Counted from the stretch's first letter, positions 19,944 to 24,877 are shown. The stretch is 64,000 nt of DNA from an uncultured Planctomycetales bacterium (GCA_964619955.1 CAZUJF010000027.1:1134-65133); one strand, 5' to 3'. Made by a program: numbers and translations. Notes: generated by a model from the letters alone, not told the origin.

Positions 19944-21536
19944 ATGCTCTCCATGCGCGCTCGGAGGGGGATGGCACTGCTGCTCGCCGCCGCACTCGCG
20001 GCGTGCGACGCCCGCAAGGACCCGGCGCCCGCCGACCCCGCCCAGGCCGCCCGCCTCAAGAAAGCCCGCGAGCTGCTCGCCGAAGCCGGCTTCCCCGGCG
20101 GCAAGGGCCTCCCCAGGCTGGAACTGCTCTACAACGACGACGAGGGCCACAAGCGCGTCGCCGCCACCCTCCAGGAGCAGTGGCGCAAGAACCTCGGCGT
20201 CGACGTCGAACTCCGCAACAGCGAATGGCGCGTCTACCTCGACGACATGAGCAAGATGCGCTTCCAGATGATCCGCCGCGGCTGGATCGCCGACTACAAG
20301 GACCCCACCACCTTCATCGAGGTCTTCGGCTCCCACAGCGGCAACAGCAACACCGGCTGGTCCAACGCCGAGTTCGACCGCCTCGTCGAGGAGGCCGAAA
20401 AGCAGGCGGATCGCGCCAAGCGCTACGAGCTGCTGAAGCAGGCCGAGGCCATCCTCTGCGACGAGGTCCCCGCCATCCCCCTCTACTTCTACGTCAACCA
20501 GAACTGCTGGCCCGACACCGTGAAGGGCATGCACTCCACCCTGCTCGACGTCCACCCCCTCGCGGGCGTCCACATCGAGGGCAAGGACACGCTCGTGATC
20601 AACAACGGCACCGAGCCCCAGAGCCTCGATCCGGGCCTCGCCCGCGGCCAGCCCGAACACCGGATCACGCTGGCGCTCTTCGAGGGGCTCACGACCTACG
20701 ACCCCAAGACCCTCGAACCCCGGCCCGGCGTGGCAGAACGCTGGGAGGTCTCAGAGGACAAGAAGAAGTATGTCTTCCACCTGAGGGACTGCACCTGGAG
20801 CGACGGCCGAAAACTCACGGCCCGGGACTTCGTCGACAGCTGGCTGCGGGTGCTCGATCCCGCGACGCCCACCGACTACGCGCACGCCCTCTTCTATATC
20901 CGCGGCGCGAAGGACTTCAACCTGAAGAAGGGCCCCCGCGAGGGCGTCGCGGTGCGCGCGCGCGACGAACGCACGCTGGAGGTCGAGCTCGTCAACCCCA
21001 TCCCCTTCTTCCTGGAACTCTGCGCCTTCTTCACGTTCGCGCCGGTCCGCATGGATCTGATCGCGAAATTCGGCACCGACTGGACGCGGCCGGCGAACAT
21101 CGCCAGCAACGGCCCCTTCAAGCTCAAGTCCTGGAAGCCCACCGAGGCCGTCGTCGTCGAGAAGAACCCCGCCTACTGGAATGCGGCCCAGGTCCGCCAG
21201 CCGTTCGTCCGCTTCGTTCCGATCACGAACCGCGCCACCGCGTGGAATCTCTACACGAAGGGGGAGATCGACATCGCCACCACGATCCCGCTCGACATCG
21301 TCGACCAGGTCGTGAAGCGCCCGGACTACCGCGGCGGCGCCTACCTCGCGGTCTACTACTACGCGCTGAACGTCACGCATGGACCGCTCAAGGACAAACG
21401 CGTGCGCAAGGCCCTCGCGCTCGCGGTCGACCGCGACGTCCTCACCTCCAGAATCACCCGCAAGGGCGAAGTGCCGGCCTTCCACATCACCCCGCCGTAT
21501 TTCGAGGGCTACACCAGCCCCCGCATCGACGATTGA
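19944..21536 (+). CDS. oppA: Oligopeptide ABC substrate-binding lipoprotein (SBP family 5), circularly permuted
   Basis: Lipobox LAAC; the OppA C-terminal third (ARELLAEAG...GWIADY...) precedes the N-terminal part (TLVINNGTEPQSLDP...LFEGL...). Confidence 0.9.
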   Translation: MLSMRARRGMALLLAAALAACDARKDPAPADPAQAARLKKARELLAEAGFPGGKGLPRLELLYNDDEGHKRVAATLQEQWRKNLGVDVELRNSEWRVYLDDMSKMRFQMIRRGWIADYKDPTTFIEVFGSHSGNSNTGWSNAEFDRLVEEAEKQADRAKRYELLKQAEAILCDEVPAIPLYFYVNQNCWPDTVKGMHSTLLDVHPLAGVHIEGKDTLVINNGTEPQSLDPGLARGQPEHRITLALFEGLTTYDPKTLEPRPGVAERWEVSEDKKKYVFHLRDCTWSDGRKLTARDFVDSWLRVLDPATPTDYAHALFYIRGAKDFNLKKGPREGVAVRARDERTLEVELVNPIPFFLELCAFFTFAPVRMDLIAKFGTDWTRPANIASNGPFKLKSWKPTEAVVVEKNPAYWNAAQVRQPFVRFVPITNRATAWNLYTKGEIDIATTIPLDIVDQVVKRPDYRGGAYLAVYYYALNVTHGPLKDKRVRKALALAVDRDVLTSRITRKGEVPAFHITPPYFEGYTSPRIDD

Positions 21537-21546
21537 GGGGACGACT

Positions 21547-22485: not shown

Positions 22486-23348
22486 ACGTGCAGAGCCCCG
22501 CGAAACGCTCGCTGCGCCGCTTCGTCAGGAACCGCCGCGCCGTGATCGCCGCCGCCGTGCTGCTCGTGCTGGGCCTCTCCACGCTGCTCGTCCCCTGGAT
22601 CTCGGCGCACGACTACCGGGACCAGGACATCGACTACACGTCGGGCGCGCCGACGGGGCGCCACTGGATGGGGACCGACGTGCTGGGCCGCGACCTGCTC
22701 ACCCGGCTCTTCCTGGGGGGACGCATCTCCTTCGCCGTCGGCCTGATGGCGACGACCGTCAGCCTCGCGATCGGCGTCGCCTACGGGGCGGTGTCCGCCT
22801 TCGCCGGCGGCCGCACGGACCAGCTCATGATGCGCTTCGTCGACGTCCTCTACGGCCTGCCCACCATGCTCGTCATCATCATCGTGATGGCGTTCGTGCG
22901 TTCGCGCAGCATCGTCTGGGTCTTCCTCGTCATCGGCGCCTTCGGCTGGCTCACGCTCGCCCGCATCGTCCGCGGCCAGGTGCTCTCGGTCCGCGAACTC
23001 CAGTTCGTCGAGGCGGCCCGCGCGCTCGGCGTCACGAGCGTCCCCATCCTCTGGCGCCACATCCTGCCCAACATCCTCGGCCCCGTGGCGGTCTATGCCA
23101 CGCTCTCCGTGCCCGCCGCCATGCTCTCCGAATCCTTCCTCTCGTTCCTCGGCCTGGGCATCTCGGAACCGGAGACCTCGTGGGGCGTGCTCATCAGCGA
23201 AGGCGCCGGCGCCGTCGCCAACGGACGCAACCTCTGGTGGCTCGTCGGCTATCCCGGGGCCGCCCTCGCCGCCACGCTCTACTGCCTCAACTCCGTCGGC
23301 GACGGCCTTCGGGACGCCCTCGACGTGCAGCAGAGGCCCGGCGCGTGA
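22482..23348 (+). CDS. oppC: Oligopeptide ABC permease
   Basis: HWMGTDVLGRD; FVEAARALG; HILPN; ESFLSFLGLG. Confidence 0.92.
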   Translation: MNVQSPAKRSLRRFVRNRRAVIAAAVLLVLGLSTLLVPWISAHDYRDQDIDYTSGAPTGRHWMGTDVLGRDLLTRLFLGGRISFAVGLMATTVSLAIGVAYGAVSAFAGGRTDQLMMRFVDVLYGLPTMLVIIIVMAFVRSRSIVWVFLVIGAFGWLTLARIVRGQVLSVRELQFVEAARALGVTSVPILWRHILPNILGPVAVYATLSVPAAMLSESFLSFLGLGISEPETSWGVLISEGAGAVANGRNLWWLVGYPGAALAATLYCLNSVGDGLRDALDVQQRPGA

Positions 23349-24877
23349 GGGTCGCGACGGCGCTCCTCGTCCTCCTGGCCGGCTGCGGGAAAAGCGATCC
23401 GCCCCCGGAGAGCGAGGCGCGCCGCCTGCTCGCCGAGGCGGGCTTCCCCGGCGGCAAGGGCTTTCCGCGCCTGGAACTCGTCTACAACACCTCGGAATCC
23501 CACAAGAAGATCGCCGCGCGCCTGCAGGAGAACTGGCGCCGCGGGCTCGGCATCGAGGTCGGCCTCGCCAACGCGGAGTGGAAGGTGTTCCTGGACCGGG
23601 TCCAGCAGAAGGACTTCGACATCGCCCGCCGCGCCTGGATCGGCGAGTACCTCGACCCGCACGCCTTCCTCGACCTCTTCACCGCGGGCAGCCTGCAGAA
23701 TCCGACGGGCTGGACCTCGCCCGAGTACGACCGCCTGGTCTCGGAGTCCAACGGCGTGAAGGACCCCGCCGCTCGCCGAGTCCTGCTCGAGCGCGCCGAG
23801 CGGCTCCTGCTCGACGAGGCGCCCATCTTCCCCGTCTACCACTACGTCGCGCACAACTGGGTGAAGCCCTTCGTGCAGGGCGTGCACTCCAACTCGCGCG
23901 ACATGCATCCGGTCCAGCACCTGCGCCTCGAGGGCCCCGGGGCGCCCGCCGACGGCACGCTCATCTTCAATGCGGGCGAGGAGCCCGGCTCGCTCGACCC
24001 GGCGGTCTCCTCGGATCTCGCGGGCCTGAAAGTGCTGATGCACCTCTTCGAGGGCCTGGCCGCCTACGATCCGAAGGACGCGACCCCCGTGCCCGCCGCG
24101 GCCGAACGCTGGGAGGTCTCCGACGACGGCCTGACCTGGACCTTCCCTCTGCGCGAGGCGCGCTGGTCCAACGGCGACCCGGTCTCGGCCGCCGACTTCG
24201 TCTACGCCTGGCGCCGCGTCCTCGATCCCGCGGTGCGCTCGACGTACGCCCACCGCCTCTTCCTGATCCGCAACGCCCGTGAGATCGCGGCGGGCAAGGC
24301 GGATGCCGCCACGCTCGGCGTGCGCGCCGAAGGGGACCGCAAGCTCGTCGTGGATCTCGTCCATCCCGCCCCCTATTTCCCCCAGCTGCTCTGTCTGAAC
24401 CTCTTTTATCCGCTGCACCGCGCCACGGTGGAGAAGCTGGGGCGGGACGCCTTCAAGCCCGAAAGCCTGGTGGGCAACGGGCCGTACCGGATGACGGAGT
24501 GGCGGGTGAACGACCGGAAGATCTTCGAGAAGAACCCGGCCTGGCGCGCGGCGGCGGACGTGAAGATCGAGCGTTTCGTGTTCCTCTCGATCCCGGATGC
24601 GGCGACCGCGCTGCGGGCCTACGAGGCCGGCCAGATCCACTGGCTCTTCCAGGCGCCGACGGACCAGATGGACCGCCTGCGCGCGCGGCCGGACTACCAG
24701 GCGGGGCCGGCGAACTCGGTCTACTACTTCGCGTTCAACACGCGGCGCAAGCCGCTCGACGATCCCCGCGTGCGCCGGGCCCTCGCGCTCGTGGCCGACC
24801 GTGAGGGCATCGCCATACACCTGCTGCGCGGCGGCGAGACCCCCGCGGACCGCCTCGTGCCGCCCTCGTCGCGGTAG
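23345..24877 (+). CDS. oppA: Second circularly permuted oligopeptide ABC substrate-binding lipoprotein
   Basis: GTG overlaps oppC stop; lipobox LAGC; same permuted order (ARRLLAEAG...then TLIFNAGEEPGSLDP...LFEGL...DREGIA). Confidence 0.9.
   Translation: MRVATALLVLLAGCGKSDPPPESEARRLLAEAGFPGGKGFPRLELVYNTSESHKKIAARLQENWRRGLGIEVGLANAEWKVFLDRVQQKDFDIARRAWIGEYLDPHAFLDLFTAGSLQNPTGWTSPEYDRLVSESNGVKDPAARRVLLERAERLLLDEAPIFPVYHYVAHNWVKPFVQGVHSNSRDMHPVQHLRLEGPGAPADGTLIFNAGEEPGSLDPAVSSDLAGLKVLMHLFEGLAAYDPKDATPVPAAAERWEVSDDGLTWTFPLREARWSNGDPVSAADFVYAWRRVLDPAVRSTYAHRLFLIRNAREIAAGKADAATLGVRAEGDRKLVVDLVHPAPYFPQLLCLNLFYPLHRATVEKLGRDAFKPESLVGNGPYRMTEWRVNDRKIFEKNPAWRAAADVKIERFVFLSIPDAATALRAYEAGQIHWLFQAPTDQMDRLRARPDYQAGPANSVYYFAFNTRRKPLDDPRVRRALALVADREGIAIHLLRGGETPADRLVPPSSR
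24791..24837 (+). repeat. Left copy of an imperfect 47-bp direct repeat (inside the oppA2 3' end)
   Basis: 41/47 identical to 26161-26207 by manual alignment. Confidence 0.85.

Follow-up and report, generated by a model that had tools for sequence, protein, structure and literature searches.

The genes SBP1 and SBP2, located in a stretch of 64,000 nucleotides (nt) from an uncultured Planctomycetales bacterium (GCA_964619955.1 CAZUJF010000027.1:1134-65133; this whole stretch is termed the window and all coordinates are counted from its first letter), very probably code for working OppA/MppA-type receptors (SBP family 5, cluster C) that are tethered to the membrane, have a circularly permuted chain, share the fold and the pocket of their canonical relatives, deliver peptides to the permease OppBC and originate from duplication and fusion. 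Both open reading frames (ORFs), i.e. SBP1 (P0001, 530 amino acids (aa), 19944-21536) and SBP2 (P0002, 510 aa, 23345-24877), are intact, lie on the plus strand and contain no internal stop codons. They are part of a tight operon with the order SBP1-oppB-oppC-SBP2, in which SBP1 is the first gene of the transporter block.

The swapped chain order emerges from a phmmer search against the Protein Data Bank (PDB). In SBP1, residues 33-190 (block A, 20040-20513, plus strand) correspond to residues 336-492 of OppA from S. typhimurium (1B05; independent E-value (i-E) 3.6e-32), and residues 207-523 (block B, 20562-21512, plus strand) to residues 5-325 (i-E 8e-77), i.e. the protein begins with the canonical C-terminal third, comprising most of domain III and the last strands of domain I, and continues with the canonical N-terminal two thirds. 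SBP2 is organized likewise, with residues 28-174 (block A, 23426-23866, plus strand) matching residues 356-502, and residues 204-508 (block B, 23954-24868, plus strand) matching residues 20-329 of B. subtilis OppA. As the E-values of the individual blocks range from 1e-32 to 1e-77, chance can be ruled out as the source of these sequence matches. In canonical numbering, the permuted chain opens at ~336, in the loop leading into the 'ARxLLAEAG' helix, and closes at ~325, following '..PPxxxGYxSP'. The same picture is obtained with the Pfam profile PF00496 (SBP_bac_5, cut-off 32.4 bits), which scores 283.8 bits for P0001 and 284.6 bits for P0002 and splits into two stretches in each protein, the stretch on the C-terminal side covering profile positions 1-256 of 368. 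Moreover, a six-frame search of the genome places profile positions 259-367 upstream of 1-258 in both genes, so that the collinear order of SBP_bac_5 (domain I-II-I-III-I) is found in neither. As an internal control, SBP3 (P0003), a third family-5 protein encoded in the window, aligns with a PDB entry in one collinear stretch (residues 21-490 to 22-517). A first-pass annotation of the window had described both ORFs as permuted with the C-terminal third first, had located the onset of the canonical N-terminal motif at about 20580 and about 23950, had pointed to a canonical-order homologue at 26227-27705 and had anticipated two matches to SBP_bac_5 in swapped order in each protein; on all these counts the alignments bear it out.

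The old termini are connected by linkers of 2-7 residues. At the join of SBP1 (20514-20588, plus strand) the old C-terminal tail ..DVHPLAGVHIEG is followed by KD and then by the old mature N-terminus TLVINNG, and the join of SBP2 (about 23864-23956) reads ..DMHPVQHLRLEG-PGAPADG-TLIFNAG. Canonical relatives end with ..HPLNRVRLSGHAK directly before the stop codon and begin, after the signal peptide, with C-GKSDGPA-AFVVNNG. Hence, the joins retain the old C-terminal tail 'HPLxxVxxxG' as well as the old mature N-terminus 'xxLVxNNG' and lack the signal peptide alone, as expected from a tandem duplication followed by an in-frame fusion. The total lengths of SBP1 and SBP2 are 510-530 aa, compared with 517-543 aa for canonical ones.

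Both proteins are predicted to be lipoproteins. The signal peptide of SBP1, MLSMRARRGMALLLAAALAAC (19944-20006, plus strand), carries the lipobox LAAC with Cys21 and an Asp at position +2, as read from the sequence, and the lipobox of SBP2 is LAGC with Cys14; both match the pattern [LVI][ASTVI][GAS]C and are preceded by a basic n-region and a hydrophobic h-region. The family consensus at this site is ..GCD.., the lipobox Cys is nearly invariant in SBP2-type sequences, and a lipobox is present in most SBP1-type sequences. Domain III of OppA reportedly spans residues 271-486 (Tame et al. 1994), and with these boundaries both new termini of the permutants presumably lie in domain III. As the new N-terminus would then belong to domain III, the lipid anchor would be shifted from domain I to the other lobe.

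AlphaFold2 (AF2) models calculated with family alignments have a mean predicted local distance difference test score (pLDDT) of 92.9 and 93.6 for the two paralogues and a predicted TM-score (pTM) of 0.88 each. The pLDDT exceeds 90 across both joins, with values of 93-98 over the join of SBP1, and the best PDB matches found by Foldseek are OppA, MppA and DppE. According to these models, the OppA fold is predicted to be kept, and only the connectivity and the attachment point of the anchor would differ. The chain would start in a surface loop before the 'ARxLLAEAG' helix of domain III, run to the old C-terminus and re-enter at the old N-terminus.

The residues lining the ligand pocket were mapped via the phmmer alignment of P0001 to OppA. 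The equivalents of OppA Y109, H371, N394, W397, R413, W416, D419 and Y420 are kept in 30-33 of 33 SBP1-type sequences. In the SBP2 type (n=38) Y109, H371 and R413 are kept in 37 sequences and W416 in 29, D419 is replaced by Glu in 37, and the positions of E32, N436 and T438 have diverged as well; E32 itself corresponds to Arg in the SBP1 type and to His, Arg or Ser in the SBP2 type. The changes at the positions of D419, E32, N436 and T438 suggest that SBP2-type proteins may have a different specificity. SBP1 and SBP2 most likely recognize peptides whose alpha-amino group is free. These would be passed on to the OppBC permease encoded between them, with ATPases from another genomic site energizing the transport. 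The gene neighbourhood indicates that murein (cell-wall) peptides may be among the ligands. E. coli MppA delivers its ligands via OppBCDF, and by analogy with this system, together with the conserved neighbourhood of recycling genes, the locus may import cell-wall peptides in addition to ordinary peptides. Along the same line, SBP3, the recycling operon to which it belongs and the adjacent OppBC suggest a shared importer for muropeptide salvage.

SBP1 and SBP2 are supported by sequence comparison as members of a large and conserved permuted subfamily. Word-indexed searches returned 69 permuted proteins among 123 matches with P0001 as query, and 111 permuted proteins among 113 new clusters with P0002, and about 180 clusters at 90% identity, drawn from assemblies of JGI, ENA, NCBI and Logan, agree in order, join and cut. 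All named permuted members belong to the Planctomycetes/Planctomycetota, apart from one short contig labelled Methylomirabilia (from a metagenome-assembled genome, MAG). Among 401 sampled Planctomycetota genomes, nine have full-length matches collinear with P0001: all six sampled genomes of the family of the window (f1; G000, i.e. the source genome, G125, G305, G320, G362 and G375), which carry their two copies about 3.5 kb apart, except for G125 with its copies on separate contigs, one genome of another family of the same class (G144) and two of another class (G261 and G336). The remaining matches listed in this survey have the canonical order, block B then block A. A contig scan also gave apparent full-length matches in seven other phyla, all of which turned out to be canonical by block-wise tblastn, the only permuted locus being L001 from Planctomycetota; these matches were misleading because the count of matched residues pools high-scoring segment pairs irrespective of their order. 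Mean column identity is 57% over 34 aligned SBP1-type and 66% over 38 aligned SBP2-type sequences.

Regarding the origin of this arrangement, the most likely route would be a tandem duplication, an in-frame fusion of the two copies and a deletion of the outer parts that spared the 5' lipoprotein signal. Intermediates of the type A-B-A or B-A-B are absent from the 236 word-indexed matches, a set whose length filter excludes double-length proteins. The exhaustive phmmer search covered 1.84 billion representatives, and there are single polypeptides of 1037-2843 aa in which two to four complete OppA units are fused in tandem (P0237, P0240, P0254, P0256, P0281, P0351, P0380, P0238 and P0239), e.g. 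P0237 with 1238 aa, P0254 with 1192 aa and P0281 with 1198 aa (from a Ca. Promineifilaceae MAG). P0238 (2704 aa) has three and P0239 (2843 aa) five cluster members, and both forms occur on several contigs. These proteins are intermediates as postulated by a duplication model, in other lineages. Additionally, further single-unit permutants exist outside the clade of the window, i.e. P0244, P0248, P0250, P0373, P0304 and P0378, each being closer to a canonical protein than to P0001 or P0002. P0244 is cut at the same site (canonical ~330) and shares 65% identity with canonical P0251, as opposed to 43% with P0001 and 37% with P0002; P0373, P0248 and P0250 are cut just past the helix, at canonical ~350, and P0304 and P0378 at canonical ~277, their first residues being 'VRVRKALALSIDR'. 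A lipobox is present in nine of ten other permutant representatives inspected, the exception being P0250, which was read by eye. A rough FastTree of 156 rows requires about nine order changes.

The genomic neighbourhood is conserved and comprises genes for a hypothetical protein, a GATase, an SDR, SBP1, oppB, oppC and SBP2, with SBP3, GH3 and AnmK on the opposite strand; synteny of GH3, AnmK and MurQ with the transporter is kept in the loci L001/L022, L025 and L026, and the recycling arrangement ending with SBP3 in L022, L025 and L026. The SBP1 in slot 1 is permuted in the window and in L001/L022 (530-548 aa), permuted with an insert of ~64 aa in L026 (P0063, 600 aa), and of canonical order with a homologous insert in L025 (P0062, 587 aa), where it is a lipoprotein as well. 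SBP2 is the permuted 518-aa type in L025 and L026 and is permuted in every syntenic locus seen. The insert ('SAD..L..F/W....R...A..LP.QVQARH...'), located behind the 'YxxG' turn in the N-terminal block, is common to a permuted group of ~600 aa (P0057-P0076) and a canonical group of ~590 aa (canonical-590; P0058-P0087, P0234) and is absent from the two proteins of the window. As OppBC of L025 is flanked by a canonical SBP1 and a permuted SBP2, one permease pair would serve receptors of both orders side by side, and orthologous slots hold either order. Trees were built on sequences restored to canonical order, using sets of 42, 58 and 118 rows. All permutants of this lineage and the canonical-590 group form one clade with a support of 99/93, and the rooted topology (outgroup,(SBP2 type,(permuted 600 (P600), canonical 590 (C590), SBP1 type))) agrees with the operon slots and implies two order changes. 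Separate trees for blocks A and B disagree weakly and give no clear sign of chimerism. At the cut site, the loop of the canonical-590 proteins is as long as that of outgroup canonicals and therefore looks ancestral rather than re-fused, which speaks for SBP2 and SBP1 having been permuted independently and not for a reversion.

Some observations weigh against our reading of SBP1 and SBP2 as functional OppA-type receptors derived by duplication and fusion. With 394.6 and 334.1 bits, both proteins score far below the cut-off of 947 bits of the NCBIfam OppA equivalog model NF011684, so that they are, by sequence, OppA-like relatives and not equivalogs of E. coli OppA. Foldseek aligns them with OppA over ~327 columns, i.e. 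about 60% of the chain (TM-score normalized to the query (TMq) 0.56, root mean square deviation (rmsd) 2.4), covering the large block only, as the aligner is sequential. Furthermore, no oppD or oppF gene adjoins SBP1-oppB-oppC-SBP2, the neighbourhood is what suggests the ligand class (general peptides or muropeptides), and the tandem fusions come from other phyla (Ca. Promineifilaceae of the Chloroflexota, where named) and are not direct ancestors. The missing ATPase genes would also suit decaying relics, i.e. rearranged genes that drift and no longer encode working receptors, but this is highly improbable in view of the invariant pocket residues, the column identity within both types, the intact lipoboxes, the overlap of SBP2 with oppC, the 10-nt spacing of SBP1 to oppB and a synteny kept across families and classes. 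Similarly, the source genome is a 95%-complete draft of 71 contigs, in which a mis-join, or two fragments read as one gene, might mimic a permutation; such an assembly or gene-calling artefact is, however, effectively refuted by the many independent clusters of identical architecture, the presence of the same operon in other assemblies, ORFs without stops, and joins that are conserved and confidently modelled. The first-pass annotation had considered an assembly error unlikely, as two diverged paralogues share the cut, and had proposed a genuine permuted subfamily, to be looked for in genomes of the Planctomycetes-Verrucomicrobia-Chlamydiae (PVC) group. The argument was right, the subfamily is substantiated by about 69 + 111 clusters, by synteny in independent assemblies and by confident AF2 models for both paralogues, and an origin from Planctomycetota, which belong to the PVC group, agrees with the protein searches and genome surveys.

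Within the operon lineage at least two order-change events are rather probable, and the data disfavour a single origin. When all permutants are constrained to one clade, the log-likelihood drops by 6-8 units, and the approximately unbiased (AU) test of this constraint yields p = 0.043 with 42 rows, a set in which 0% of the bootstrap trees have one change. The careful trees need two changes and match the operon slots, and the ~64-aa insert links the canonical-590 with the permuted-600 group. All this speaks against one permutation that predates the split of SBP1 and SBP2, with canonical-590 being an outgroup protein placed in slot 1 by gene replacement, a scenario that we consider possible, if doubtful: it is not rejected by the AU test in the larger data set (p = 0.197, 58 rows), the quick tree of 118 rows forces only one change, all three permuted groups are cut within one and the same loop, and the block-A tree unites these groups at 80% SH-aLRT. 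Beyond the operon, we lean slightly towards the view that OppA-type lipoproteins are a hot spot of recurrent permutation via tandem-fusion intermediates that are still extant, the chain order having changed at least twice in the planctomycete operon, once in SBP2 and again, or back, in SBP1, to yield orthologues that differ in connectivity and anchor and use the same OppBC. The permutation might have been selected as a shift of the anchor from domain I to domain III that affects receptor attachment at the membrane or presentation to OppBC, e.g. when several receptors share one translocator; the frequent lipoboxes among SBP1-type sequences and the other permutants, the finding that independent lineages are repeatedly cut at one helix or in its immediate vicinity, and SBP3, which has canonical order and no lipobox, fit this idea, and the same has been proposed for the permuted lipoprotein TpMglB-2 (PMC4990184). 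Yet such adaptive re-tethering appears unlikely, as the canonical SBP1 of the P0062 type is also a lipoprotein and occupies the same slot at the same OppBC beside a permuted SBP2, with no change in the permease being needed, and as neutral tolerance equally predicts recurrence at exposed loops. In particular, the notion that moving the anchor alters docking to OppBC is weakened by L025.

Among known systems, OppA (S. typhimurium/E. coli 1B05, 1OLA and 3TCF; B. subtilis 8ARE/8ARN) gives the best sequence and fold matches, with E-values of 2e-111 for P0001 and 1e-91 for P0002 and ~41% identity over the large block. SBP1 and SBP2 resemble it in the residues that bind the peptide backbone and termini and in their association with OppB and OppC, and Gram-positive OppA in the predicted lipid anchor as well; they differ in that the chain is rotated (start ~336, end ~325) and would be anchored from domain III instead of domain I. 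MppA, the murein tripeptide-binding protein of E. coli (3O9P, 4TOZ), which feeds OppBCDF, follows with E-values of ~1e-89 (P0001) and ~1e-84 (P0002). In both systems extra binding proteins use one Opp translocator, and the locus of the window adjoins NagZ-like, AnmK and MurQ-like genes, but MppA has canonical order and is soluble in the periplasm, and muropeptide binding by the proteins of the window is suggested by their neighbourhood. The canonical planctomycete SBP1 (P0062 type, ~590 aa) shares the slot, the neighbours on both sides, the clade and the lipoprotein nature with SBP1 of the window, whereas its chain order is normal and it contains the insert found in the permuted ~600-aa group. 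The relevant precedent for the permutation itself is TpMglB-2 (Tp0684) from Treponema pallidum, a natural circularly permuted binding lipoprotein of an ATP-binding cassette (ABC) transporter that keeps fold, ligand binding and closure, and for which a 'cluster Bc' was introduced by its authors, who also speculated that topology and tethering are connected (PMC4990184). As in TpMglB-2, homologous segments are swapped in SBP1 and SBP2, the old termini are joined, the arrangement is shared by a family and the fold is, according to the models, retained. TpMglB-2 differs in that it belongs to structural cluster B, binds sugar, is cut elsewhere and has no sequence homology to family 5. In line with the first-pass annotation, a literature search turned up no account of OppA or any other family-5 protein in circularly permuted form, so the permuted family-5 subfamily is apparently undescribed; it is neither a new kind of system nor rare in databases.

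Family-5 (cluster C) proteins belong to the bacterial receptors that have been studied best, and they are classified on the assumption of a single chain topology. Permuted members are under-described by order-sensitive annotation and sequential aligners: Pfam splits them, NCBI equivalogs fail and Foldseek stops after the large block. The OppA fold is predicted to tolerate a start in domain III while using the same permease as a canonical-order orthologue, which constrains models for the docking of tethered receptors. Canonical proteins, permutants with several cuts and tandem fusions may also serve as a natural series for protein evolution and engineering, and the reading of recurrent permutation, if true, makes the effect of the tether position on receptors of ABC importers directly testable. 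Finally, the link to NagZ, AnmK and MurQ suggests a dedicated importer for the salvage of cell-wall peptides in Planctomycetota.

The permease genes are tightly packed between SBP1 and SBP2. oppB (21547-22485, plus strand; OppB Pfam match) begins with a GTG start codon that is preceded by GAGGGG and lies 10 nt past the SBP1 stop; the start of oppC (22482-23348, plus strand; OppC_N and BPD_transp_1 domains) overlaps the oppB stop (GTGA), and the GTG start of SBP2 overlaps the oppC stop in the same way (GTGA). The 10-nt gap to oppB and the overlap with oppC are consistent with translational coupling. A scan for promoters and terminators gave nothing informative for this operon. A genome search of G000 revealed six family-5 genes and three OppC-type permease sets, with loci at 97368-103575 of contig C1 and at 126311-130037 of contig C8, and only one oppD/oppF pair with the oligo_HPY domain, located on contig C1 beside a canonical opp operon. 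Given these numbers, the ATPases for the transporter of the window are probably shared from elsewhere in the genome, or lack the oligo_HPY domain.

SBP3 (26227-27705, minus strand), a diverged family-5 binding protein of canonical order with a plain signal peptide and no lipobox, lacks a dedicated permease. Its gene closes a divergent operon for peptidoglycan recycling, the other genes of which (27702-30825, minus strand) encode a NagZ-like GH3 protein (27702-28667), AnmK (28664 to about 29770) and a MurQ-like SIS protein (29722-30825). Between SBP2 and SBP3, G000 alone carries a gene for an AAA_14/DUF4143 ATPase (24889-26190, minus strand), which looks like a recent insertion, as it is missing from the corresponding position in the syntenic loci L001/L022, L025 and L026. 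Elsewhere in the window, positions 42001-44000 have a G+C content of 0.575, compared with about 0.68 in the remainder, and Rfam, applied at gathering thresholds to 40-46 kb around this patch, returned no match. On the minus strand, positions 17418-17445 carry a sigma-70 consensus without a mismatch (TTGACA, 16 nt, TATAAT; 12/12), which is directed away from the hypothetical gene at 17385.

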